A stretch of DNA of 29,410 nucleotides. Origin: a virus. Location of the stretch: the UHGV virus genome UHGV-0009628. One strand, written 5' to 3'. Positions 51 through 22,067 of this stretch are shown one piece after another (positions within the stretch are counted from its first letter, which is position 1; every line of letters begins with the position of its first letter). The notes below the pieces were generated by a model, which saw only the letters and a list, made by a program, of their open reading frames with translations, ran no database searches and was not told the DNA's origin. A program made the position numbers and the translations under genes.

Positions 51-77
51 AAAAAATAAGCCCGTGTAAGGGAGATT
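51..77. other. P2-type attachment-site core at the prophage/host junction; bases 1-50 are presumed host flank
   Basis: AAAAAATAAGCCCGTGTAAGGGAGATT read directly at 51-77, matching my recollection of the 27-bp P2 att core; lies just outside the 3' end of int as in P2. Confidence 0.65.
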
Positions 78-156
78 TAGGGTGTCACCAGTAGGGGCTT
101 TCAACGGTACAATGCGGGTTTGAGCGGCATAAATTACCACTGAAAGCCCTTAAACG

Positions 157-1170
157 TTACTCTACTGTGGACACTGTGTGGACACTCTCGGCTTCAGTAC
201 CACCTCTTAGCGGATTAAGAGAAATGGCGTCCTGAAGGTACTCTGGCGCAAAATGAGCGTAAACCATAGTTTGCTCAATCCGCGTGTGACCTAGTATCCG
301 TTGTAGCGTGATAATACTTCCTCCATTAATCATGAAATGAGTGGCAAAGCTGTGCCTTAGTGCATGTGTGGCTTGCCCCGTTGGCAAATCCGGTTTTATT
401 GCTTTCATTGTTCGTCTGAAGCGAGGGTAATCAGCATCAGGGAATAAAAAACCTCGTTTGTTATCCGCGATCATTTTGGCAACAGCCTCTGAGATCGGGA
501 CGGTGCGTGGTTTGTTTGTTTTCGTTTTAACAAACGTGACGCGGTTATGGATGATATTTTCTGCTTTCAAACGAGCTGCTTCTCCCCAACGTGCTCCTGT
601 ACTCAGGCAAAGAATCGCAATCTTTTTGTTGTCGCCGTCAAGTGCTGCAAGCAGTAAGGCAATTTCTTCCTGTGTGAGATAGCCTGTTTCTGGTTTTTCC
701 TCCTTAAGCCTCTTTGTCCCTCTGATAGGGTGCTCACCAAAGAATAACTCCGCTTCAATCAGGGCTGTAAACATGCCGCTAATACATGTTAAATCACGAT
801 TGATACTCGAAGGTTTAATACCCTGACTTCTTCGGGTGGCGCAGTACTGGCTGATAAGGGATTTCGTGATTTGAAATGCGCATGGGTCATTCGTTATTTT
901 TGTGAAGATTTCAATTTTTCCAAGATTAGATTTCCCATGCTCTTCGTGTTTACCCTTTAAATCCCACCAGATCTGTGTCAGTTCCGACAGACGTCGTTTG
1001 TCTGTTGGTTTTGATAGCCATTCTTTATTGTGGTGGTTGTACAACGTGTATTTTTCGAAAGCGACAGCTTCGCTTTTCTTATCAAACTTCCTACGGATAC
1101 GTTTTCCGTTACGTCCAGTAGGGCGGATGTCCACTTCATATCGACCATCATCGAGTTTTTTGATTGCCAT
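157..1170 (-). CDS. int: Tyrosine integrase (P2 Int family)
   Basis: 337 aa, ATG start. C-terminal catalytic region HALRHSFATHFMINGGSIITLQRILGHTRIEQTMVYAHF carries the R..H-x-x-R...Y signature of tyrosine recombinases. Position adjacent to att core. Confidence 0.95.
   Translation of the reverse strand: MAIKKLDDGRYEVDIRPTGRNGKRIRRKFDKKSEAVAFEKYTLYNHHNKEWLSKPTDKRRLSELTQIWWDLKGKHEEHGKSNLGKIEIFTKITNDPCAFQITKSLISQYCATRRSQGIKPSSINRDLTCISGMFTALIEAELFFGEHPIRGTKRLKEEKPETGYLTQEEIALLLAALDGDNKKIAILCLSTGARWGEAARLKAENIIHNRVTFVKTKTNKPRTVPISEAVAKMIADNKRGFLFPDADYPRFRRTMKAIKPDLPTGQATHALRHSFATHFMINGGSIITLQRILGHTRIEQTMVYAHFAPEYLQDAISLNPLRGGTEAESVHTVSTVE
166..184. promoter_or_regulatory. Two direct TGTGGACA repeats (166-173, 177-184) one helical turn apart; candidate Int arm-type binding sites
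   Basis: Exact 8-bp direct repeat with 11-bp periodicity inside the 3' end of int, next to the att core. Assignment to Int binding is from recollection of P2 attP architecture and is an inference. Confidence 0.4.
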
Positions 1171-3474: not shown

Positions 3475-3746
3475 GTATTCGTATTGAAATTGGCGAACGT
3501 TATGTCGTTACCAGTGACAGCTTTCAGTTTATTCTCCACGAGAAAAAGAGAGCGGAAAGCGGTAAAAACGCCGGTCAGGAATGGCTGGCGGTGGTTGGTT
3601 ATTATCCGAAATTAAGCCAGCTCGTTTCCGGCCTGATGCATCACGATATTCTGACCGGAAGCGCAAAGTCTTTTGCTGATTTAAACGCGCAGGTTGAGCA
3701 ACTCAGCAGGCGTTGTTCAGAGGCTTTTGGCTCATATGGCCGTTAA
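3471..3746 (+). CDS. Early-operon hypothetical protein (orf83 position)
   Basis: 91 aa, ATG with GGAGAA SD; stop overlaps the start of A. Confidence 0.6.
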   Translation: MSIRIEIGERYVVTSDSFQFILHEKKRAESGKNAGQEWLAVVGYYPKLSQLVSGLMHHDILTGSAKSFADLNAQVEQLSRRCSEAFGSYGR

Positions 3747-5811
3747 AGCCTCCGGGCGTTTTGTCCCTCCTTCAGCATTTGCTGCAGGCACCGGTAAGGC
3801 GTTTACCGGTGCTTATGCATGGAACGCGCCACGCGAGGCCGTCGGGCGCGAAAGACCCCTTACACGTGACGAGATGCGTCAGGTGCAAGGTGTTTTATCC
3901 ACGATTAACCGCCTGCCTTACTTTTTGCGCTCGCTGTTTACTTCACGCTATGACTACATCCGGCGCAATAAAAGCCCGGTACACGGGTTTTATTTCCTCA
4001 CATCCACTTTTCAGCGTCGTTTATGGCCGCGCATTGAGCGTGTGAATCAGCGCCATGAAATGAACACCGACGCGTCGTTACTGTTTCTGGCAGAGCGTGA
4101 CCACTATGCGCGCCTGCCGGGAATGAATGACAAGGAGCTGAAAAAGTTTGCTGCCCGTATCTCATCGCAGCTTTTCATGATGTATGAGGAACTCAGCGAT
4201 GCCTGGGTGGATGCGCATGGCGAAAAAGAATCGCTGTTTACGGATGAGGCGCAGGCTCACCTCTATGGTCATGTTGCTGGCGCTGCACGTGCTTTCAATA
4301 TTTCCCCTCTCTACTGGAAAAAATACCGTAAAGGGCAGATGACCACGAGGCAGGCATATTCTGCCATTGCCCGTCTGTTTAACGATGAGTGGTGGACTCA
4401 TCAGCTTAAAGGCCAGCGTATGCGCTGGCATGAAGCGTTACTGATAGCTGTCGGGGAGGTCAATAAAGACCGTTCTCCTTATGCCAGTAAACACGCCATT
4501 CGTGATGTGCGTGCGCGCCGCCAGGCAAATCTGGAATTTCTTAAATCGTGTGACCTTGAAAACAGGGAAACCGGCGAGCGCATCGACCTTATCAGTAAGG
4601 TGATGGGCAGTATTTCTAATCCTGAAATTCGCCGGATGGAGCTGATGAACACCATTGCCGGTATTGAGCGTTACGCCGCCGCAGAGGGTGATGTGGGGAT
4701 GTTTATCACGCTGACCGCGCCGTCAAAGTATCACCCGACTCGTCAGGTCAGAAAAGGCGAAAGTAAAACCGTTCAGCTTAATCACGGCTGGAACGATGAG
4801 GCATTTAATCCAAAGGATGCGCAGCGTTATCTCTGCCGTATCTGGAGCCTGATGCGCACGGCATTCAAGGATAATGATTTACAGGTCTACGGTTTGCGAG
4901 TCGTCGAGCCACACCACGACGGAACGCCGCACTGGCATATGATGCTTTTTTGTAATCCACGCCAGCGTAACCAGATTATCGAAATCATGCGTCGCTATGC
5001 GCTCAAAGAGGATGGCGACGAAAGAGGAGCCGCGCGAAACCGTTTTCAGGCAAAACATCTTAACCGGGGCGGTGCTGCGGGGTATATCGCGAAATACATC
5101 TCAAAAAACATCGATGGCTATGCACTGGATGGTCAGCTCGATAACGATACCGGCAGGCCGCTGAAAGATACTGCTGCGGCTGTTACCGCATGGGCGTCAA
5201 CGTGGCGCATCCCGCAATTTAAAACGGTTGGCCTGCCGACAATGGGGGCTTACCGTGAACTACGCAAATTGCCTCGCGGCGTCAGCATTGCTGATGAGTT
5301 TGACGAACGAGTTGAGGCTGCACGTGCCGCCGCAGACAGTGGTGATTTTGCGTTGTATATCAGCGCGCAGGGTGGGGCAAATGTTCCGCGTGATTGCCAG
5401 ACTGTCAGAGTCGCCCGTAGCCCGTCGGATGACGTTAACGAGTACGAGGAAGAAGTCGGGAGAGTGGTCGGCATTTACGCGCCGCATCTCGGCGCGCGTC
5501 ATATTCATATCACCAGAACGACGGACTGGCGCATTGTGCCGAAAGTTCCGGTCGTTGAGCCTTTGACTTTAAAAAGCGGCATCGCCGCGCCTCGGAGTCC
5601 TGTCAATAACTGTGGAAAGCTCACTGGTGGTGATACTTCGTTACCGGCTCCCACACCTTCTGAGCACGCTGCAGCAGTGTTGGATTTGATTGATATAGGG
5701 GTGGTTAGTTGGAATGATGCTGAGGTGATGACAGTTCTTAGGAAGAGATTAAAAGATTACTCACGGGAATTGATGGTATTCAAAGGAAGGGCTAGCCAAC
5801 GCCCAATCTGA
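3736..5811 (+). CDS. A: Rolling-circle replication initiator A (phiX174 gpA-like nickase)
   Basis: 691 aa from ATG at 3736 (track start 3694 is TTG). Motifs GTPHWHMMLF (HUH-type metal-binding His pair) and AAGYIAKYISKNIDG (catalytic Tyr pair) typical of RCR initiators; position after orf83 as in P2. Confidence 0.9.
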   Translation: MAVKASGRFVPPSAFAAGTGKAFTGAYAWNAPREAVGRERPLTRDEMRQVQGVLSTINRLPYFLRSLFTSRYDYIRRNKSPVHGFYFLTSTFQRRLWPRIERVNQRHEMNTDASLLFLAERDHYARLPGMNDKELKKFAARISSQLFMMYEELSDAWVDAHGEKESLFTDEAQAHLYGHVAGAARAFNISPLYWKKYRKGQMTTRQAYSAIARLFNDEWWTHQLKGQRMRWHEALLIAVGEVNKDRSPYASKHAIRDVRARRQANLEFLKSCDLENRETGERIDLISKVMGSISNPEIRRMELMNTIAGIERYAAAEGDVGMFITLTAPSKYHPTRQVRKGESKTVQLNHGWNDEAFNPKDAQRYLCRIWSLMRTAFKDNDLQVYGLRVVEPHHDGTPHWHMMLFCNPRQRNQIIEIMRRYALKEDGDERGAARNRFQAKHLNRGGAAGYIAKYISKNIDGYALDGQLDNDTGRPLKDTAAAVTAWASTWRIPQFKTVGLPTMGAYRELRKLPRGVSIADEFDERVEAARAAADSGDFALYISAQGGANVPRDCQTVRVARSPSDDVNEYEEEVGRVVGIYAPHLGARHIHITRTTDWRIVPKVPVVEPLTLKSGIAAPRSPVNNCGKLTGGDTSLPAPTPSEHAAAVLDLIDIGVVSWNDAEVMTVLRKRLKDYSRELMVFKGRASQRPI

Positions 5812-5950
5812 TTATGTTTTGTAATGATAAGTTAATGCTGAATGAGTGGCTCGCGCATAACCTTGCGGGAAAAAGAGCATATTATGTACAGTTTTGAGGT
5901 TGGCTAGAGGGGATGGGCGAGATAGTTTGTGTTTGTGTGGGTTTGAGAAG

Positions 5951-5968
5951 TTTGATGCGCACATCAAA
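5951..5968. promoter_or_regulatory. Perfect 18-bp palindrome TTTGATGcgcaCATCAAA, candidate operator
   Basis: 7-bp inverted arms with a 4-bp spacer, directly upstream of the candidate -35 of the cargo cassette promoter. Confidence 0.35.
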
Positions 5969-5970
5969 AA

Positions 5971-5999
5971 TTGATACAACTGATTGAAAAAATGATAAA
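5971..5999 (+). promoter_or_regulatory. Candidate sigma70 promoter for the cargo cassette (-35 TTGATA 5971-5976, 17-bp spacer, -10 GATAAA 5994-5999)
   Basis: Hexamer match and spacing read from sequence, about 40 bp upstream of the ORF1 ATG, which has an AAGGGGGGAAG SD. Confidence 0.35.
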
Positions 6000-6036
6000 A
6001 AAGCTGTTAAATGCGTCAGTTTTCTAAGGGGGGAAG

Positions 6037-7167
6037 ATGAAAAAAATAACCAAGAGAGAAAGAGAGAGAGATATTTTACGATCCTATTTACATCGTACAG
6101 GAAGAGATGTTGTATCTGCAGGGCGCTCTAAGATTAATCCTATTTCAAAAGCATCAAAAATAAATCGTTGGATAAATGCGCAAATTAAAGATGGATTAAA
6201 TTGCGAAATAAGGAAAAATAGAGACCTTTTCCTTACTTTACCTAAAAAGATGAACTTTTCAAGTAATTACCATCGTACAATGCAAGCCATACAAACGATT
6301 AGGCATCTTACAGGGCGGAAGATATTTAATAACCAATGTTACCGTCTTTGTTTTGTTGACTTTTCGAAGATTGAATATATTTCTGCATCTGCCGCATTGG
6401 TATTGACCGCGGAATTATCAAAATGGGATGATTCGGTAAGGCAACGCATTCGCCCAAAAGTGAAAACGTGGAATAAAAACATACTCTCTCAATTTGATGA
6501 GTTGGGTTTTTTTGACTTATTTAGAAATAAAGATAGTTTTGAGCTTGAAAAAGAAAAGGAACCAAGTAATATCCGTTTTGTTAAGTATATGAAAGGACAT
6601 TTACATGATGATGAAAAAACTCAGCATTTAAAAAAAGAAATAAAGCGTATTGTGGGAGAAGACCTTGGTAAATGGACTTTCCTATACAGTGGTTTGTCCG
6701 AAGCTATTACAAATGTTGTTCATCATGCTTATCCAGATAATAAAGGCTATCATGAGCATGATAAAAAATGGTATTTAACTGCTTCATATGATAGTTCAAG
6801 TAGAATAATAAAAGTAGTGTTTTATGATCAAGGTATTACAATTCCTGGGTCTTTGCCGGAATCTAAACTCCATGAAAAGGTTTTAAATTACCTTTCGAAG
6901 TTACCGCTTGCAGAACGAAAAAGAGATGAACAATTGTTAAAGGCTGCAGTTGAAATCAAACGTTCTAGTACGGGGGAAGAGGATCGGGGTAAAGGCTTGC
7001 AGGACTTGTTGGAGTTCATAAAGCAACGTGGTGAAGGTTATCTTTCAATTATGAGTGGTAAAGGCCTTTACAAATACTCACAACATGATAAAAAATCTGA
7101 GGTAAAATCAGTAAGCTTCGCTCTGCCTGTTTGTGGTACACTTATAGTATGGAGTACAAAGCTATGA
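6037..7167 (+). CDS. Cargo ORF1: GHKL-superfamily ATPase/kinase-like protein (C-terminal half resembles RsbW/SpoIIAB-type anti-sigma-factor kinases), N-terminal about 200 aa unknown
   Basis: 376 aa, ATG with strong SD; about 33% GC against a GC-rich backbone. N-box-like LSEAITNVVHHAY (aa 220-232), G1-like YDQGITIPG (aa 262-270), G2-like RGKGLQDLLEF (aa 317-327). Motif-level recognition only. Confidence 0.6.
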   Translation: MKKITKRERERDILRSYLHRTGRDVVSAGRSKINPISKASKINRWINAQIKDGLNCEIRKNRDLFLTLPKKMNFSSNYHRTMQAIQTIRHLTGRKIFNNQCYRLCFVDFSKIEYISASAALVLTAELSKWDDSVRQRIRPKVKTWNKNILSQFDELGFFDLFRNKDSFELEKEKEPSNIRFVKYMKGHLHDDEKTQHLKKEIKRIVGEDLGKWTFLYSGLSEAITNVVHHAYPDNKGYHEHDKKWYLTASYDSSSRIIKVVFYDQGITIPGSLPESKLHEKVLNYLSKLPLAERKRDEQLLKAAVEIKRSSTGEEDRGKGLQDLLEFIKQRGEGYLSIMSGKGLYKYSQHDKKSEVKSVSFALPVCGTLIVWSTKL

Positions 7168-7553
7168 TTACTAGATTGGTTGCTAGCCTCATGAAAACAT
7201 TGAAGATTGGTTCAGAGTTCTCGAAAGTTCCCAGAGGCCGCTATCGTACTGACGGGACAGCAAGTGGTGAACGGTTTAGAGAAGATTTCTTAAGAAAGCG
7301 TCTAAGCTTGCTTTCTGCTGGGGAAAAATTGCAGATAGTCATCGATGATGATGTCGAAGGATATGGTTCGTCTTTTTTGGTGGAGGGCTTTGCGGGCATG
7401 GTAAAATATGGATATATGCATGCCAATGAGTTATTGTCTAAAATTGAAATTAAATATACTAATCCTGATTTTGATTTCTATAAAAAGAAAATAGAACAAT
7501 ATATCAACGAGGCGCAGTTTAATTCGAAACGATATGAGCCAACAGTCGAATAA
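7164..7553 (+). CDS. Cargo ORF2: small STAS-like (DUF4325-like) protein, candidate partner of the ORF1 kinase/ATPase
   Basis: 129 aa from ATG at 7164 (ATGA overlap with ORF1 stop, GGAG SD 10 nt upstream; track start 7131 is TTG). Segment SGERFREDFLRKRLSLLSAGEKLQIVIDDDVEGYGSSFLVEGFAGMV resembles the anti-sigma-antagonist/STAS pattern around the phospho-Ser. Confidence 0.5.
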   Translation: MITRLVASLMKTLKIGSEFSKVPRGRYRTDGTASGERFREDFLRKRLSLLSAGEKLQIVIDDDVEGYGSSFLVEGFAGMVKYGYMHANELLSKIEIKYTNPDFDFYKKKIEQYINEAQFNSKRYEPTVE

Positions 7554-8196
7554 TCCGATGTTTATTTTAGGTGAGGGTTCTGGTGAGTTCTCACCTAGTT
7601 TGCTTTTTATCAAGAAGGATAATGAAGAAGGCCTGAGTGCTACTCATGCAGTTAAGGATATTAATACGATAATTGAAGTAGCTAGTTCTAATATTGTTGA
7701 TGCAATACGGCATCCACCTGAAACGCCTATTTTATCGTCATCACTTATTACGGCTCTTATTAGTACTATTTGTGCGGCCACTGCCGCATTTGCATATAAT
7801 AAAGTCCATTGGCGTTCTGTTGTTAAACGGGAGACTAAAACCAAACTCCTGGAGAGTATTTCAGATGTGGTTAATGAGTTGCGTTCTGATGCTATTAGTT
7901 ATTGGTTGAAGGGGTATTCAAAAAAGTCGGCGAAGTCTCTCTTAGAAGAGGAAATGAGAATTAAGGCGAGTTTAAATATAATAAATTCGACTATAACAAT
8001 ATATGTTCAGCAAGAGTCGCGATGGAAAAGAAAGGATATTGAAGCTCAGTTAAGGGTTTTTCATGACGAACTTTTTGATATTATAACAGGTGATGATTTT
8101 GAGTCTCAGGCAAGGAAGCAGGATAAGGCAAAGGTTTCTGCTATTTCTACAAAGTGTGTGGCTTTTCGCGTTTTATTAAATACCATCAAGTTTTAA
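7534..8196 (+). CDS. Cargo ORF3: single-pass membrane protein, candidate effector
   Basis: 220 aa; overlaps ORF2 by 20 nt; one hydrophobic stretch PILSSSLITALISTICAATAAFAY (aa 65-88) followed by a charged, likely helical C-terminal region. No recognisable catalytic motif. Start could be 7558 instead. Confidence 0.5.
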   Translation: MSQQSNNPMFILGEGSGEFSPSLLFIKKDNEEGLSATHAVKDINTIIEVASSNIVDAIRHPPETPILSSSLITALISTICAATAAFAYNKVHWRSVVKRETKTKLLESISDVVNELRSDAISYWLKGYSKKSAKSLLEEEMRIKASLNIINSTITIYVQQESRWKRKDIEAQLRVFHDELFDIITGDDFESQARKQDKAKVSAISTKCVAFRVLLNTIKF

Positions 8197-8328
8197 GATA
8201 GCCATGCATGAGTTTGGTGCATGAAAATGCATGAGGTTTTACGAATTATTTTGGCTAAAATCAGCCTGCCCTGACTGGCTACGGCAGATATCATGCACCT
8301 GCATTAAAACCGCCCCATGAAGCGGGCG

Positions 8329-8347
8329 GGCGAGGCGGGGAAAGCAC
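8329..8347. other. cos site (19-nt cohesive-end sequence of P2 type)
   Basis: GGCGAGGCGGGGAAAGCAC at 8329-8347 matches my recollection of the P2 cohesive end; lies about 170 bp from the 3' end of Q as in P2. A GC hairpin CCGCCC-N8-GGGCGG (8310-8329) abuts it. Confidence 0.6.
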
Positions 8348-8489
8348 TGCGCGCTGGCGGTGGTGCTGATTTTATTTTTTCAGCGTCTGAGTGCGTCGTG
8401 AAGGCGTTTACTTGGCCTGCCAGGGCGTCGGTGTGTCTGCGGGCTGTTTTGCGCGGTGGTGAGCGTGTGAGGGCGTGATGGCGGGTTGT

Positions 8490-8511
8490 AAAAAAGCCGC
8501 CCGCAGGCGGC
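8490..8511 (-). terminator. Rho-independent terminator downstream of Q (minus strand)
   Basis: On the minus strand, GCCGCC-TGCG-GGCGGC hairpin followed by TTTTTT, immediately 3' of the Q stop at 8517. Confidence 0.7.
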
Positions 8512-8516
8512 GATGT

Positions 8517-9551
8517 TCAGCCGTTGTCAGTGTCCAGTGAGTAGTTTTTAAAGCGGATGACCTCCTGACCGAGCCAGCCGTTTATTTCCCGAATCCTGTC
8601 CTGTAACGGGATAAGCTCATTGCGGACAAAGACCTTTGCCACTTTTTCAATATCACCCAGTGACCCGACGTTCTCCGGCTTGCCCCCCATCAACTGAAAG
8701 GGGATGCGGTGCGCGTCCAGCAGGTCAGCGGCGCTGGCTTTTTTGATATTAAAAAAATCGTCCTTCGTCGCCACTTCACTGAGGGGGATAATTTTAATGC
8801 CGTCGGCTTTCCCCTGTGGGGCATAGAGAAACAGGTTTTTAAAGTTGTTGCGGCCTTTCGACTTCACCATGTTTTCGCGGAGCATTTCGATATCGTTGCG
8901 ATCCTGCACGGCATCAGTGACGTACATGATATATCCGGCATGAGCGCCGTTTTCGTAATACTTGCGGCGGAACAGCGTGGCCGACTCATTCAGCCAGGCA
9001 GAATTAAGGGCGCTGAGATATTCCGGCAGGCCGTACAACTCCTGATTAATATCCGGCTCCAGCAGGTGAAACACGGAACCGGGCGCGAAGGCTGTCGGCT
9101 CGTTGAAGGACGGCACCCACCAGTAAACATCCTCTTCCACACCACGGCGGGTATATTTTGCCGGTGAGGTTTCCAGTCTGATGACCTTACCGGTGGTGCT
9201 GTAACGCTTTTCCAGAAACGCATTACCGAACACCAGAAAATCCAGCACAAAGCGGCTGAAATCCTGCTGGGAAAGCCACGGATGCGGGATAAATGTCGAG
9301 GCCAGAATATTGCGTTTGACGTAAATCGGGGAGCTGTGATGCACGGCAGCACGCAGGCTTTTTGCCAGACCGGTAAAGCTGACCGGTGGCTCATACCATC
9401 TGCCGTTACTGATGCACTCGACGTAATCCAGAATGTCACGGCGGTCGAGTACCGGCACCGGCTCACCAAAGGTGAATGCTTCCATTTTCGGGGCGCTGGC
9501 GGTCATTGTTTTTGCCGCAGGTTGCGGTGTTTTCCCTTTTTTCTTGCTCAT
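8517..9551 (-). CDS. Q: Portal protein
   Basis: 344 aa, same length and position as P2 Q; ATG overlaps the P stop (ATGA). Confidence 0.9.
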   Translation of the reverse strand: MSKKKGKTPQPAAKTMTASAPKMEAFTFGEPVPVLDRRDILDYVECISNGRWYEPPVSFTGLAKSLRAAVHHSSPIYVKRNILASTFIPHPWLSQQDFSRFVLDFLVFGNAFLEKRYSTTGKVIRLETSPAKYTRRGVEEDVYWWVPSFNEPTAFAPGSVFHLLEPDINQELYGLPEYLSALNSAWLNESATLFRRKYYENGAHAGYIMYVTDAVQDRNDIEMLRENMVKSKGRNNFKNLFLYAPQGKADGIKIIPLSEVATKDDFFNIKKASAADLLDAHRIPFQLMGGKPENVGSLGDIEKVAKVFVRNELIPLQDRIREINGWLGQEVIRFKNYSLDTDNG

Positions 9552-11323
9552 CAGTAAAACTCCAGAATGGTGGATGTCAGCGGGGTGCTGATACCGGCGG
9601 TGAGTGGCTCATTTAACAGGGCGTGCATGGTCGCCCAGGCGAGGTCGGCGTGGCTGGCTTCCTCGCTGCGGCTGGCCTCATAGGTGGCACTGCGTCCGCT
9701 GCTGGTCATGGTCTTGCGGATAGCCATAAACGAGCTGGTGATGTCGGTGGCGCTGACGTCATATTCCAGACAGCCACGGCGGATAACGTCTTTTGCCTTG
9801 AGCACCATTGCGGTTTTCATTTCCGGCGTGTAGCGGATGTCGCGCGCGGCAGGATAGAACGAGCGCACGAGCTGGAACACGCCGACACCGAGGCCGGTGG
9901 CATCAATACCGATGTATTCGACGTTGTATTTTTCGGTGAGTTTGCGGATGGATTCCGCCTGGGTGGCAAAGTCCATGCCTTTCCACTGGTGACGCTCAAG
10001 TATTCTGAATTTGCCACCGGCAACCACCGGCGGTGCCAGTACCACGCATCCGGCGCTGTCGCCACGGTGTGACGGGTCGTAACCAATCCAGACCGGGCGT
10101 GAGCCGAACGGATTGGCGGCAAACGGCGCATAGTCTTCCCATTCTTCCAGCGTGTCGACCATGCAGCGTTGCAACTCCTCGAACGGGAACACCGACGCCT
10201 TGTCGTCAACAAATTCACACATGAACAGGTTTTTAAAATCGTCGGCGCTGTTTTCGCGTTTGAGCTGCTCAATGTCGAACAGCGTGCAGCCGCCTTTCAG
10301 GGCGTCCTCAATGGTGACAATCTGCCGCCACTGGCCGTCCGCACAGAGAAGACCTCCGGCAAGTGCGTTATGACTGACGTCGATTTCCACGCGTTCAGCG
10401 GCGCTGGCGCGTCCCCGGTTAAACAGTTCACCCGACCAGAACGGGTAGGCGTCGTGCGCCAGCGTGGACGGGGTGGAGAAATAGGTCGAACGCAGGTGAC
10501 TCTGTGAGGCCATGCCTGATGCCACCTTACGCAGTACCTGAAAATTCGGGATCCAGAAAATCTCATCGACGTACAGGTCGCCGTTATGGCTCTGCGCGGT
10601 GTTGGAGTTGGTGCCGAGAAAAATCAGTTTTGCGCCATTATTGCCCAGGACAATCGGGTCACCGGTCAGGTCAACGTCAACCAGACGGGCAAAGGCGATG
10701 ATGTATTCGCGGAACACATACGCCTGCGTTTTACTGGCCGACAGAAAAATCTGGTTATGGCCGGTTTTCAGGGCGCGCAGCAGCGCCTCGCGGGAAAAAT
10801 AAAACGTCGCGCCAATCTGGCGGGATTTCAGGATATCGCGGATGCGGTGCTCAAGCCCGGCGCGATACCAGTGCAACTGATATTCGAAAGACTGCTCAAA
10901 GAAAATCTGCTCCAGCTTTTCGATGGCTTCGTCACTGAAAAAATTCTTTTTCGGTTTGCGACGCCCGCCTTTGTTGCGGTTAGCGACGTTCGGATTAAGG
11001 TCTGCCTCGTTGCCGGTCTGGCTGTAACGGTTGACCCGTGCCAGCCGTTCAATCTGGCGTCCGAGCAGGTCAATTTCCTTGAAGTCACCGCCGGTTTTCT
11101 GCGGTTTGATGATGAGCTGGGTCAGCCGCGCTTCCAGACTCATTTCGACACGGCTGATGGGGGCAACGCTGTCCCAGCCGTCGCGCTGTTTCCAGCTCTG
11201 CACCGTCGGGCGTTTCATCTGCAACATGGCGGCAATCTGCGGCACGGAAAACCCCTGCCAGTACAGCAGCGCCGCCTGACGACGTGGGTCGTGTAAAAGA
11301 GTGGTGTCTGTGGTGATGGTCAT
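9551..11323 (-). CDS. P: Terminase large (ATPase) subunit
   Basis: 590 aa from ATG at 11323 with GAGG SD (track start 11353 is TTG); N-terminus MTITTDTTLL; same length and position as P2 P, divergent from O. Confidence 0.9.
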   Translation of the reverse strand: MTITTDTTLLHDPRRQAALLYWQGFSVPQIAAMLQMKRPTVQSWKQRDGWDSVAPISRVEMSLEARLTQLIIKPQKTGGDFKEIDLLGRQIERLARVNRYSQTGNEADLNPNVANRNKGGRRKPKKNFFSDEAIEKLEQIFFEQSFEYQLHWYRAGLEHRIRDILKSRQIGATFYFSREALLRALKTGHNQIFLSASKTQAYVFREYIIAFARLVDVDLTGDPIVLGNNGAKLIFLGTNSNTAQSHNGDLYVDEIFWIPNFQVLRKVASGMASQSHLRSTYFSTPSTLAHDAYPFWSGELFNRGRASAAERVEIDVSHNALAGGLLCADGQWRQIVTIEDALKGGCTLFDIEQLKRENSADDFKNLFMCEFVDDKASVFPFEELQRCMVDTLEEWEDYAPFAANPFGSRPVWIGYDPSHRGDSAGCVVLAPPVVAGGKFRILERHQWKGMDFATQAESIRKLTEKYNVEYIGIDATGLGVGVFQLVRSFYPAARDIRYTPEMKTAMVLKAKDVIRRGCLEYDVSATDITSSFMAIRKTMTSSGRSATYEASRSEEASHADLAWATMHALLNEPLTAGISTPLTSTILEFY

Positions 11324-11353
11324 GAATACCTCGCCGTGATGAATACACGGCAA

Positions 11354-19655: not shown

Positions 19656-20259
19656 TTCGCGTCTGCTGCCGACCGGCTCATCACCGCTTGAAATTGCTGC
19701 CGCGAAAGCCTGTGCGGAAATTGAAAAAACGCCGGTCAGTATTCGTGAGCTGTGGAACCCGGACACCTGCCCGGCAAATCTGCTGCCGTGGCTGGCGTGG
19801 GCCTTTTCGGTCGACAGGTGGGATGAAAAGTGGCCGGAAGCGACAAAACGCGCCGTTATCCGCGATGCCTATTTCATCCACTGTCATAAGGGTACTGTCG
19901 GCGCAATCCGGCGTGTTGTGGAGCCGCTCGGCTATCTGATTGAAGTGAGGGAGTGGTGGCAGCTCAACGAGGAGCCGGGGACGTTCCGTATCGTTGTTGG
20001 CGTGCTTGAGCAGGGTATTACCGAAGAAATGTATCTGGAGCTGGAACGTCTCGTTGCTGATGCAAAACCGGCGAGCCGCCATCTGACGGGACTGGCTATC
20101 AGTTTAAGTACAACCGGCAACATTTTTGCCGGAACGGGATGCTATCACGGTGACGCCCTGACGGTTTATCCCTACACCCCGGAGGCCATTATTGTCGGAG
20201 GGGATTATTTCCCGGCCTCGGTCATTCATTTAATTGATAACCTGAGAGTAAACGCATGA
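19648..20259 (+). CDS. I: Baseplate protein I
   Basis: 203 aa, between J and H as in P2; N-terminus MSDSRLLPTGSSPLE. Confidence 0.85.
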   Translation: MSDSRLLPTGSSPLEIAAAKACAEIEKTPVSIRELWNPDTCPANLLPWLAWAFSVDRWDEKWPEATKRAVIRDAYFIHCHKGTVGAIRRVVEPLGYLIEVREWWQLNEEPGTFRIVVGVLEQGITEEMYLELERLVADAKPASRHLTGLAISLSTTGNIFAGTGCYHGDALTVYPYTPEAIIVGGDYFPASVIHLIDNLRVNA

Positions 20260-22067
20260 CAGTGAAATACTACGCCATTCTGACTAATCAGGGCGCAGCA
20301 CGACTGGCTAACGCGACGATGCTCGGCAGTAAGCTGAATCTGACGCAAATGGCCGTTGGTGATGCGAATGGTGTCTTGCCGACACCAGACCCGGTACAGA
20401 CAAAACTGATTAACCAGAAACGCATTGCACCGCTGAATCTTCTGAGTGTTGACCCTAACAATCAGAGCCAGATTATTGCGGAGCAAATTATCCCTGAAAA
20501 CGAGGGAGGATTCTGGATCCGTGAGATTGGGCTTTATGATGATGAAGGCGTACTCATTGCGGTGGCGAACTGCCCGGAAACGTACAAACCGCAGTTGCAG
20601 GAAGGCAGTGGTCGTACCCAGACTATCCGCATGATTCTGGTTGTCTCGAATACCGAAGCCATCACGCTGAAAATCGATCCGTCGGTGGTACTGGCGACCC
20701 GTAAATATGTGGATGACAAAATCTCAGAACACGAACAGTCACGACGACACCCGGATGCATCGCTGACCGCAAAAGGTTTTACTCAGTTAAGCAGCGCAAC
20801 CAACAGCACGTCTGAAACACTGGCCGCAACGCCGAGAGCGGTAAAGATCGCGTATGACCTTGCTAACGGGAAATATACTGCACAGGACGCGACCACAGCG
20901 CGAAAAGGTCTTGTCCAGCTCAGTAGTGCCACCAACAGCGATTCTGAAACGCTTGCGGCAACGCCAAAGGCGGTAAAGACAGCATATGACCTTGCTAACG
21001 GGAAATATACCGCACAGGACGCGACCACAGCGCGAAAAGGTCTTGTCCAGCTCAGTAGCGCCACCAACAGCGATTCTGAAACGCTTGCGGCAACGCCAAA
21101 GGCGGTAAAGACAGCATATGACCTTGCTAACGGGAAATATACCGCACAGGACGCGACCACAGCGCGAAAAGGCCTTGTCCAGCTCAGCAGCGCCACTAAC
21201 AGCACGTCAGAAACGCAGGCTGCCACACCAAAAGCCGTGAAGGCTGTATATGACCTTGCCAATGGAAAACAACCTGCCGACGCCATACTGACCGCACTGG
21301 CAGGCCTTGCCACTGCGGCAGACAAACTTCCGTATTTTACGGGGAATGATACAGCCAGCCTGACAACCCTGACTAACGTTGGACGGAATATTCTGGATAA
21401 AGCAAGCACACAGGCGGTTATTCAATATCTTGGTCTGAGCGATGCAAGTGGATACGTTGGACGCTGGCTGAATACCCGGGTTTTCACCTCATCAGGTACG
21501 TACACCCCGACGCCAGGAACAAAACGGATCAGGGTCACAATAACGGGCGGCGGTGGCGGAGGGGGCGGCTGCAAGGCTACATCCAATAATGAAACGTTTT
21601 TCGGTGCTGGCGGTGGGGCCGGTGGAACAATAATTTCAATAATGACCCCGACACAGAATAGTTATCCAGTCACTATCGGCGCAGGTGGGGCCGGTGGTGT
21701 TAGTGCGACGAACGGCACCAGTGGCGGGAATAGCGTATTTGCATCGTTAATTGCTCCTGGTGGCGCAGGTGGCGGGAAAGTGGGAGTTACAAATACAAAC
21801 GGCGGTAACGGAGGTGTGCCGAATACTGGCGATATCCGCATCACTGGTGGAAATGGAGGCGACGGTCAGTCCGGAAATATCAGCGTCAGCGGTGAAGGCG
21901 GAACATCGTACTGGGGTGGCGGTGGACGCGCAGGCGCTGGCGGTGGCGTTAGCGGCAAGGCATATGGTTCAGGCGGAGGTGGTGCATACGATGCCGGTTA
22001 TAGCGGAACCAGTATGACGGGCGGGAAAGGCGCTGCAGGGATTTGTATTATCGAGGAGTTTGCATAA
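20256..22067 (+). CDS. H: Tail fibre protein H, with internal tandem fibre repeats and a glycine-rich distal domain
   Basis: 603 aa; conserved N-terminal baseplate-attachment region, four tandem 44-aa repeats, then a C-terminal domain dominated by GG/GGxGG runs. Confidence 0.9.
   Translation: MTVKYYAILTNQGAARLANATMLGSKLNLTQMAVGDANGVLPTPDPVQTKLINQKRIAPLNLLSVDPNNQSQIIAEQIIPENEGGFWIREIGLYDDEGVLIAVANCPETYKPQLQEGSGRTQTIRMILVVSNTEAITLKIDPSVVLATRKYVDDKISEHEQSRRHPDASLTAKGFTQLSSATNSTSETLAATPRAVKIAYDLANGKYTAQDATTARKGLVQLSSATNSDSETLAATPKAVKTAYDLANGKYTAQDATTARKGLVQLSSATNSDSETLAATPKAVKTAYDLANGKYTAQDATTARKGLVQLSSATNSTSETQAATPKAVKAVYDLANGKQPADAILTALAGLATAADKLPYFTGNDTASLTTLTNVGRNILDKASTQAVIQYLGLSDASGYVGRWLNTRVFTSSGTYTPTPGTKRIRVTITGGGGGGGGCKATSNNETFFGAGGGAGGTIISIMTPTQNSYPVTIGAGGAGGVSATNGTSGGNSVFASLIAPGGAGGGKVGVTNTNGGNGGVPNTGDIRITGGNGGDGQSGNISVSGEGGTSYWGGGGRAGAGGGVSGKAYGSGGGGAYDAGYSGTSMTGGKGAAGICIIEEFA
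20772..21299 (+). repeat. Four tandem 132-bp in-frame repeats inside H (units start 20772, 20904, 21036, 21168)
   Basis: Units 2 and 3 nearly identical at DNA level; each encodes KGLVQLSSATNSDSETLAATPKAVKTAYDLANGKYTAQDATTAR-type 44-aa tail-fibre repeats. Confidence 0.9.

Follow-up and report, generated by a model that had tools for sequence, protein, structure and literature searches.

A three-gene, prophage-borne cassette in the P2 defence hotspot encodes a predicted CapK/VapK-type kinase, a STAS-like partner, and a small membrane protein

We analyzed a 29,410-nucleotide stretch of a virus genome (UHGV-0009628; "the window" is this whole stretch). It contains a low-GC accessory island (36.7% GC versus 54.2% across the remaining window) that sits in the P2 defence hotspot, between the portal gene and the P2 replication gene A. 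The flanks are common to P2-like phages, and the whole island was present in only 15 of 5,426 complete E. coli genomes. An earlier reading of the DNA, made from the letters alone (the sequence-only reading), had placed the first gene of the island in a phage exclusion hotspot, and the locus is indeed in Table S5A of Rousset 2022, where its entry is "hypothetical + DUF4325 + hypothetical." The cassette consists of three genes, with ORF1 first, and spans 2.2 kb in E. coli (Table 1). ORF1 is a real gene, with an ATG start and an upstream Shine-Dalgarno sequence (GGGGGGAAG), and the start codon of ORF2 overlaps the stop codon of ORF1 (ATGA). Promoter-like sites in the region were not significantly more numerous than in shuffled controls.

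Table 1. Features of the island and its three genes, in window coordinates.
Feature	Position	Strand	Basis or detail
Low-GC accessory island	5812..8300	+	Composition, flanking genes
Candidate sigma-70 promoter, TTGAGA-17-AAAAAT	5943..5971	+	Upstream of ORF1; weak consensus match
ORF1, 376 aa, predicted CapK/VapK-type serine kinase	6037..7167	+	Basic N-terminus + STAS-like + GHKL
ORF1 residues 1-54, basic helical N-terminal region	6037..6198	+	15 K+R vs 5 D+E, pI 11.3
ORF1 residues ~55-206, STAS-like fold	6199..6654	+	beta3-alpha2 core = residues 103-123
ORF1 residues ~207-376, GHKL (Bergerat) kinase domain, predicted	6655..7164	+	
ORF1 N-box	6694-6732	+	E222, N226, H230
ORF1 G1	6823-6849	+	D264, G266
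ORF1 G2	6988-7017	+	G318, G320
ORF1 G3	7135-7152	+	G367, T368
ORF2, 129 aa, DUF4325 STAS-like, predicted kinase substrate/switch	7164..7553	+	
ORF2 Ser69-Ser70, candidate phospho-acceptor	7368..7373	+	Start of STAS helix alpha2
ORF3, 220 aa, single-pass membrane protein, predicted effector	7534..8196	+	Hydropathy, conservation, AlphaFold
Hairpin (14-bp stem), then T-rich run	7567..7598	+	Just within 5' end of ORF3
ORF3 TM helix, residues ~66-88	7729-7797	+	
ORF3 cytoplasmic four-helix bundle, residues ~95-219	7816-8190	+	AlphaFold pLDDT about 90 over bundle

The sequence-only reading had picked out four stretches of ORF1, and we found each of them: an N-box-like motif (LSEAITNVVHHAY, residues 220-232), a G1-like YDQGITIPG (263-271), a G2-like GKGLQDLLEF (318-327), and, in the N-terminal half, a STAS-like stretch (RLCFVDFSKIEYISASAALVL, residues 103-123). 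It had numbered the G1 aspartate as D263, which needs correcting: residue 263 is a tyrosine and the aspartate is D264. Beyond the motifs first quoted, ORF1 also has a G3 box (G367-T368), and a conserved insert (residues ~274-317) separates G1 from G2. Among 40 homologues (~50% identity), E222, N226, H230, and A231 of the N-box are invariant, as are D264 and G266 in G1, R317, G318, G320, and L321 at G2, and G367 and T368 in G3. At such a level of identity, this invariance puts the motifs far above chance expectation.

The same reading had likened ORF1 to anti-sigma-factor serine kinases with a Bergerat fold, and the predicted structure bears this out. The AlphaFold model has the Bergerat alpha/beta sandwich, and two independent fold searches with it ranked kinases of the anti-sigma-factor type first. 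With Foldseek, which had been proposed as a check, the top match was SpoIIAB (E = 2.3e-4) and GyrB ATPase domains were next-best; RsbW, SiaB, VapK, and CapK are further closest matches by structure or profile. The N-box of ORF1 (E222, N226) aligns with its counterparts in VapK, CapK, and SpoIIAB. ORF1 reached 16.9 bits against a Pfam gathering cutoff of 27.4 for HATPase_c/HATPase_c_2; 30 of 40 family members touched HATPase_c_2, every one of them below the gathering score. Against the NCBIfam equivalogs for RsbW and SpoIIAB, ORF1 scored 12-15 bits (cutoffs of 135-155), and the full-length family profile had no match among PDB sequences, even at E ≤ 10.

VapK and CapK come from recently described systems. 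VapKSC comprises the kinase VapK, the STAS antitoxin VapS, and the PIN toxin VapC (Chambers et al., EMBO J 2026; PMC13373217). Phosphorylation of VapS by VapK sets the VapC toxin free, and vapKSC protects by about 2 logs against phage Bas42 (PMC13373217). [quoted passage not shown] We compared an ORF1 family profile built from 118 sequences with single-sequence templates for both kinases, taken from the supplement of PMC13373217. By hhalign, ORF1 is homologous to VapK (96.3%, E = 2e-9; residues 59-375 of ORF1 against 8-289 of VapK) and to CapK (95.4%, E = 1.9e-8; 5-376 against 5-365). F54 of VapK, which putatively stacks on ssDNA, aligns with Y114 of ORF1, which is variable in the family, and W68 of CapK aligns loosely near N73/F74, of which F74 is invariant.

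The first 200 residues of ORF1 are basic, as had been noted (43 K+R versus 23 D+E, pI 10.1). Apart from the STAS-like stretch, this half had been described as having no recognizable motif; the stretch stands, but the rest of the description does not, since a STAS-like fold lies there. This domain is fused N-terminal to the GHKL domain, as is characteristic of CapK and VapK, and it has the invariant S116 and S118, a tryptophan (W130), and an LGFFD motif (156-160) that is common to CapK. We considered whether it is a paralogue of ORF2 and rejected this (hhalign probability 0.4%), so the STAS assignment is drawn from the fold and from the CapK/VapK alignment. Residues 1-54 take the position of the HTH domain of CapK and include conserved R9, D12, R20, and W45; no HTH family was detected in this region. 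Overall, ORF1 is very likely to be a GHKL kinase of the CapK/VapK type and, as such, would be expected to have phosphotransfer activity.

ORF2 matches Pfam DUF4325 just above the cutoff (24.1 bits versus 23), and all 44 of its homologues match this family (best E = 3e-16), as does VapS (62.7 bits). Its C-terminal helix (residues ~98-117) is conserved. S70 is invariant (44/44 sequences) and S69 nearly so (42/44), while a homologue from P4 retains the S70 position only. The phosphorylated Ser48 of VapS aligns with S69, and that of CapS (pSer54) aligns with S70. At the profile level, the hhalign scores for ORF2 are weak (9-14% against VapS and 0.4-0.5% against CapS, the latter spanning the phospho-site motif only), so the link to VapS rests on shared Pfam membership. 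Searches of PDB sequences, with ORF2 as a single sequence or as a profile, returned insignificant matches only. One STAS protein, 3t6o, aligns in register with ORF2 at the GSSF motif, albeit insignificantly. No HTH family matched ORF2, and the C-terminal wHTH of CapS is absent. ORF2 has the features of the STAS antagonist encoded next to RsbW or SpoIIAB, with potentially phosphorylatable serines (S69 and S70), and of the STAS protein encoded downstream of CapK or VapK, with a conserved serine on helix alpha2. To judge from its sequence, ORF2 is the real STAS partner in the cassette, and we consider it likely to be the phospho-substrate of ORF1. The sequence-only reading had proposed ORF2 as the substrate for a kinase assay, and this proposal is strengthened by VapS, the validated substrate of VapK, which is also a DUF4325 protein.

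The start of ORF3 is backed by a homologue that lacks the second methionine. Residues 1-41 are variable and disordered. In many homologues this N-terminal extension is missing and the TM helix begins at residues 2-10, so the conserved part of ORF3 is the cytoplasmic bundle, which has an invariant Y123-W124 and a TGGxFE motif (185-190). One TM helix does not obviously make a pore. Compared with ORF1 and ORF2, the third gene is evolving much faster, and a profile-seeded database search for relatives of ORF3 gained three diverse sequences and no more. ORF3 takes the position of the VapC toxin in the gene order, and no PIN match was found in it. Because the fold search returned a generic four-helix bundle and no informative match, the proposed toxicity of ORF3 is purely by analogy. 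By that analogy, we tentatively suggest that ORF3 is an effector kept in check by ORF2, and we put the chance of this at slightly under even.

The three genes form a strictly syntenic triad in essentially all of the 44 complete loci, which span several phyla. In 44 of 45 loci ORF2 comes directly after ORF1, and ORF3 HMM matches follow ORF2 in 41 of 45. A helical protein with one TM segment follows ORF2 in essentially all of the complete loci; in two loci from Verrucomicrobiota (L042 and L045), for example, a gene of ORF3 design fills the third position. The triad is widespread: it occurs in P2 and P4 hotspots, in lambdoid prophages (including one from Klebsiella), in a P2/186-like hotspot in Serratia, in integrase islands (including an integrase/methylase island in Methylotenera), and as a lone insertion in Cycloclasticus. 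The flanking genes include 8 integrases and many matches to defence models (raw counts, with no background control). Neither the island nor the annotated neighborhoods that we inspected contained a gene for a sigma factor. A search with the ORF1 profile alone yields about 2,500 cluster representatives at 50% identity, and the family extends across Proteobacteria, Desulfobacterota, Planctomycetota, Verrucomicrobiota (including Akkermansia), Bacteroidota, and Nitrospinota.

The cassette is, in our view, probably an anti-phage or exclusion system. As to how it might work, we lean, at somewhat better than even chances, towards a self-contained anti-phage module that is switched by phosphorylation, of the CapK/VapK kinase-STAS class, with its output at the membrane. 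In an uninfected lysogen, unphosphorylated ORF2 would be bound to the cytoplasmic bundle of ORF3, keeping ORF3 inactive. A cue derived from infection would switch on ORF1; this could be ssDNA or another nucleic acid, sensed where the STAS and GHKL domains meet or through the basic N-terminus. ORF1 would then phosphorylate ORF2 on Ser69 or Ser70, and phosphorylated ORF2 would release (or activate) ORF3, as in a partner switch. Freed ORF3 might damage or block the inner membrane, which would lead to abortive infection or to exclusion of the incoming phage and thus protect the lysogen population. We are doubtful that the trigger is ssDNA itself: it may differ, given that the putative ssDNA-contact residue varies in the ORF1 family and that a basic N-terminal domain has been added.

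The output could instead be non-toxic, with ORF3 blocking the entry of phage DNA at the membrane or acting as a sensor, and with the kinase-STAS pair tuning or relaying a signal without any killing. ORF3 is small, single-pass, and anchored near its N-terminus, and its variable extracytoplasmic N-terminus would suit a role at the surface; also, fast evolution of the third gene is expected of a component that contacts phage, and exclusion genes are also found in the hotspots of P2-type prophages (Rousset 2022). But since many homologues do without the extension, and since the only characterized relative with a third gene, VapKSC, employs that gene as a toxin, we view a non-toxic ORF3 as unlikely. 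A role confined to gene expression seems much less probable still. If the pair were a controller of the CapK/CapS type, it would only regulate the expression of ORF3 or of neighboring prophage genes upon DNA damage. The alignment of ORF1 to CapK is full-length, with the N-terminal domain in the same position, and CapK/CapS also sits upstream of other genes, namely immune operons. [quoted passage not shown] We give this arrangement a small chance.

Two further possibilities, both very improbable in our view, concern ORF1. It might be an anti-sigma factor that inhibits a sigma factor of the host or of a phage, with ORF2 as the anti-anti-sigma factor, so that transcription (of prophage genes, for instance) is reprogrammed. 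SpoIIAB and RsbW are the best structural matches of ORF1, and a STAS partner with a conserved serine is encoded next to it. This is countered by the lack of a sigma-factor gene in the neighborhoods that were inspected gene by gene, by the low equivalog scores, and by the size of ORF1, a 376-residue fusion with a STAS domain as opposed to a single domain of ~145 residues. Furthermore, the cassette moves among phyla whose sigma repertoires differ, and the pair is always linked with a membrane protein. Alternatively, ORF1 might be an ATPase or a pseudokinase that acts as a nucleotide-dependent clamp or switch, like the MORC, GyrB, and Hsp90 branches of GHKL proteins. The Foldseek matches to GyrB are in keeping with this, and the kinase activity of ORF1 is a prediction; yet the closest matches are protein kinases, ORF1 lacks the transducer or dimerization domain that is typical of GHKL ATPases, and a STAS partner with a conserved serine exists.

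If the phosphorylation-switched membrane module is correct, then a partner-switching circuit that is best known for the control of sigma factors has been rewired to an antiviral output at the membrane. The newly discovered immune logic of kinase-STAS pairs (CapK/CapS and VapKSC) would extend to a membrane protein as a third type of output, and the pair would be a portable sensor-switch that evolution has plugged into differing effectors. The triad might even found a large and broad class in which a CapK/VapK-type kinase and a DUF4325 protein directly control a fast-evolving membrane effector, although we hold this idea with less than even confidence. In E. coli the family occupies the P2 hotspot as well as the P4 hotspot, yet current defence-annotation tools miss it. 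The E. coli copy is tractable, as it is small, its catalytic and candidate phospho-site residues are clear, and the genetics of the host are workable; the identity of the trigger (ssDNA or otherwise) is directly testable with the cassette.

We compared the cassette with known systems. None of the three ORFs had a match among PADLOC-DB 2.0 models (E ≤ 1), and in PHROGs only families without known function matched. By accession, the cassette is absent from the CapK and VapK datasets of PMC13373217, and searches of the literature on DUF4325, on STAS proteins and anti-phage activity, and on partner switching and phage defence found no tested equivalent except CapK/VapK. The newly named P4 systems Crouga, Bandua, Aernus, Toga, Reve, and Hailong (PMC13586616) differ in architecture, as judged by their text descriptions. 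Rst_3HP, a validated system, likewise occupies the P2 hotspot with three genes that lack annotated domains (Rousset et al. 2022), but it is distinct: its proteins in Table S2A (334, 355, and 227 aa) are unrelated to ours in sequence and size. A closer relative is system #69 from the hotspot of P4 satellites, listed as "HATPase_c | DUF4325" (Rousset et al. 2022, Table S1B). Its kinase aligns with ORF1 (hhalign 99.6%, E = 3e-24, 299 columns), its DUF4325 protein matches the ORF2 HMM (E = 5e-33), and its third protein has one TM helix. Nevertheless, it is a divergent lineage (27% identity between the kinases) in the P4 rather than the P2 hotspot, and its third gene has no detectable similarity to ORF3 outside of the TM segment.

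Among characterized systems, SpoIIAB/SpoIIAA and RsbW/RsbV share with the cassette the N-box, G1, and G2 motifs of the kinase and a STAS partner whose serine lies at the start of helix alpha2. Unlike these, the cassette is mobile and carried by prophages, no sigma factor is visibly involved, and ORF1 is fused to a STAS domain of its own and scores far under the equivalog cutoffs. CapK is a three-part kinase of similar length (368 aa versus 376), with its catalytic asparagine at 218 (226 in ORF1) and the LGFFD motif at the end of its STAS domain, and the substrate serine of CapS lies in an "SSF" motif that aligns with S70 of ORF2. The differences are that no HTH was detected at the N-terminus of ORF1, that ORF2 has no wHTH domain and therefore is not a repressor, and that the output is a fixed membrane protein instead of a downstream immune operon. 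Relative to VapKSC, the cassette has a membrane-anchored four-helix bundle where VapC is a PIN nuclease, ORF1 carries an additional basic N-terminal region of about 55 amino acids, F54 of VapK is not conserved in the ORF1 family, and sequence identity is low (15-25%). On the other hand, the gene order is the same (kinase, STAS protein, third gene), VapK is a STAS-GHKL fusion that aligns with ORF1 across both domains, VapS and ORF2 are both DUF4325 proteins that share a short C-terminal helix and the position of a serine, and both systems are found in mobile elements and defence neighborhoods. Overall, the sequence comparisons indicate that the cassette most resembles the CapK/VapK phage-defence kinases, but with a predicted membrane protein as its third component.

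A P2-like prophage, nearly complete, makes up the window (see table). Replication gene A and the portal gene are separated by an island with a GC content of 36.7% (versus 54.2% elsewhere in the window), and this gap is the P2 defence hotspot of Rousset et al. 2022 (PMC9122126). The island carries three ORFs, all co-directional; among 5,426 complete genomes of E. coli, only 15 have it in full. RefSeq names ORF1 "hypothetical" or "ATP-binding protein," ORF2 "DUF4325 domain-containing protein," and ORF3 "hypothetical." In a RefSeq genome bearing the same locus, gene A (the equivalent of 3694-5811 in the window) is marked as a pseudogene, "missing C-terminus," and the GC drop begins near 5.7 kb (junction at ~5700-5811), so the 3' end of gene A may have been replaced by the island's left edge. 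Elsewhere in the prophage, the tail-fibre ORF (20256-22067) has about four tandem repeats of ~44 amino acids (…TAQDATTARKGLVQLSSATNSDSETLAATPKAVKTAYDLANGKY…) and a very glycine-rich C-terminal region.

Features of the prophage and of the island proteins (nucleotide positions in the window, unless given as residues)
Feature	Position	Strand	Remarks
Integrase	157-1170	-	
Replication gene A	3694-5811	+	
ORF1	6037-7167	+	376 aa
ORF1, basic helical N-terminus	residues 1-54		pI 11.3
ORF1, STAS-like domain	residues ~55-206		
ORF1, GHKL kinase domain	residues ~207-376		
ORF2	7164-7553	+	129 aa; ATG overlaps the stop of ORF1 (ATGA)
ORF3	7534-8196	+	220 aa
Portal gene	8517-9551	-	
Terminase gene	9551-11353	-	capsid and tail genes come next

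The sequence-only reading had assigned ORF1 to the GHKL ATPases on the basis of short motifs. All of these are where it placed them, with one correction: D263 should read D264 for the aspartate of G1. Across 40 homologues with about 50% identity to ORF1, the N-box residues E222, N226, H230, and A231 are invariant, as are D264 and G266 in G1; R317, G318, G320, and L321 in G2; and G367 and T368 in G3. Because of this invariance, the motifs are not chance matches. By itself, the sequence-profile case for a GHKL identity is weak: ORF1 scored 16.9 bits against Pfam's HATPase_c_2 (cut-off 27.4), which 30 of 40 family members touched, every one below threshold; it scored 12-15 bits against RsbW and SpoIIAB from NCBIfam (cut-offs 135-155); and the family profile had no match among PDB sequences. 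When the structural model of ORF1 was searched with Foldseek, SpoIIAB ranked first (E = 2.3e-4) and GyrB ATPase domains came next, in agreement with the proposed anti-sigma-kinase-like fold. The model of residues ~55-206 has the element order beta-beta-alpha-beta-alpha...beta-alpha, which is consistent with a STAS-like fold; the stretch that had been called STAS-like (residues 103-123) is the beta3-alpha2 core of this domain.

ORF2 matches Pfam's DUF4325 ("STAS-like domain") at 24.1 bits, just above the cut-off of 23, and all 44 of its homologues from other genomes match this model as well (best E = 3e-16). Ser69-Ser70 of ORF2 lies right behind strand beta3 and opens helix alpha2, which is the canonical phospho-acceptor position of STAS domains. 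S70 is invariant (44/44 sequences), and 42 have S69.

ORF3 has a variable, disordered N-terminus and a single conserved hydrophobic helix (~66-88), followed by a run of positive charge, which points to a cytoplasmic C-terminal part. This part is confidently modelled as a four-helix bundle (pLDDT ~90), with an invariant Y123-W124 and a TGGxFE motif; a fold search matched generic helical bundles only. A hairpin with a 14-bp stem, followed by a T-rich run (7567-7598), lies just past the ORF2 stop codon and within the first codons of ORF3, and could tune ORF3 expression via attenuation or translational control.

When one genome per species was scanned, 44 loci turned up, spread over Gamma-, Beta-, and Alphaproteobacteria, Desulfobacterota, Planctomycetota, Verrucomicrobiota (including Akkermansia), Bacteroidota, and Nitrospinota. 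With the E. coli RefSeq copy added (45 loci), an ORF2 homologue is directly downstream of ORF1 in 44, and the remaining locus is cut by a contig end. An iterated HMM found an ORF3 homologue behind ORF2 in 41 of the 45; two Verrucomicrobiota loci that it missed (L042 and L045) carry a similarly designed gene in that place, with an N-terminal TM helix and a helical domain. Counted as representatives of 50%-identity clusters, the hits of an exhaustive search with the ORF1 profile number 2,537 at E ≤ 1e-3 and 1,666 at E ≤ 1e-10; most of them are full-length.

In E. coli and Serratia the triad occupies P2/186-like hotspots; in Klebsiella, the accessory region of a lambdoid prophage; in Methylotenera, an island that also carries an integrase, a methylase, and a ParB-like gene; and in Cycloclasticus it is a bare three-gene insertion with housekeeping genes on either side. 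The ORF1 homologue of Klebsiella (L050/L051:8001-9335) is called at 444 aa, with ~65 extra N-terminal residues. It has the phage replication/ParB-like genes on one side and the DinI/antiterminator Q region on the other, which makes a lambdoid accessory slot another home of the cassette. Of the 115 large ORFs that flank the cassette most closely at 43 loci, 8 are integrases and many match defence models, among them MADS mad3 and mad8, AriA, PtuA, AbiLi, JetA, restriction-modification enzymes, and DRT reverse transcriptases; as these counts have no background control, they are supportive only. Convergent to the triad of L045 (a MAG of Akkermansia muciniphila), and directly downstream of it, is an ORF of 538 aa (7542-9158) for a patatin-like phospholipase, perhaps a defence or effector gene of the neighbourhood.

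The closest described proteins are the kinase-STAS systems of Chambers et al. (EMBO J 2026, PMC13373217). CapK is an ssDNA-activated HTH-STAS-GHKL kinase, and its substrate CapS, a repressor of STAS-wHTH architecture, is phosphorylated at Ser54. [quoted passage not shown] Against phage Bas42, this operon protects by ~2 logs (PMC13373217). Using the sequences in that paper's supplement and an ORF1 family profile of 118 sequences, we aligned ORF1 59-375 to VapK 8-289 (hhalign 96.3%, E = 2e-9) and ORF1 5-376 to CapK 5-365 (hhalign 95.4%, E = 1.9e-8); SpoIIAB scored lower (81.7%). Shared features include the G1 form "DxGxGIP," a G1-G2 insert with the pattern "LKxA...T...RGxGL," and the "LGFFD" motif from the end of the CapK STAS domain. 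VapS is a strong member of DUF4325 (62.7 bits), so it and ORF2 share a Pfam family; VapS Ser48 aligned to S69 of ORF2, and CapS Ser54 to S70. As for ssDNA contacts, VapK F54 aligns with Y114 of ORF1, which varies across the family, and CapK W68 aligns loosely, beside the invariant F74; the basic N-terminus of ORF1 is conserved. The reading of ORF1 as a GHKL kinase is supported and can be sharpened: it is a predicted CapK/VapK-class STAS-GHKL kinase.

The G1-G2 segment of ORF1 (~274-317; window 6856-6987), whose pattern is also in VapK, has pLDDT <50 at 274-283 and 308-317 and invariant residues E280, L301, A303, A304, R309, and T312. This segment may serve as an ATP lid specific to the family, or as a loop for substrate docking.

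From homology and gene order, we propose that ORF1 would phosphorylate ORF2 on S69 or S70 and that this would alter ORF2's binding partner. The likely client is ORF3, which is invariably linked: unphosphorylated ORF2 would keep ORF3 inactive, and infection would free it to act at the inner membrane. Possible roles for ORF3 are those of a toxin, an entry blocker, and a sensor. The cassette is a good target for experiments.

Among catalogued systems, a PADLOC search of the island gave no match, and Rst_3HP was ruled out as the identity of the triad because its proteins are unrelated. The island genes are listed in Table S5A of Rousset 2022 (WP_032254602, WP_032254618, and WP_126646822), and this locus is absent from the systems cloned there (PMC9122126). 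System #69 from the P4-satellite hotspot ("HATPase_c | DUF4325", "1 TM in protein 3"; 9 occurrences, Table S1B of PMC9122126) is a diverged version of the triad: ORF1 aligns with its kinase (hhalign 99.6%, E = 3e-24), its DUF4325 protein matches the ORF2 HMM (E = 5e-33) and has the motif YGRSF, retaining only the serine equivalent to S70, and its third gene is like ORF3 in design only. The datasets of PMC13373217 did not contain the ORF1 family by accession, and that paper makes no mention of a membrane-protein variant. Overall, ORF1 is the first gene of a kinase-STAS-membrane-protein cassette that is conserved, widespread, and unannotated and has a putative role in defence; the cassette is a variation on the recently described CapK/VapK kind and not a categorically new system.
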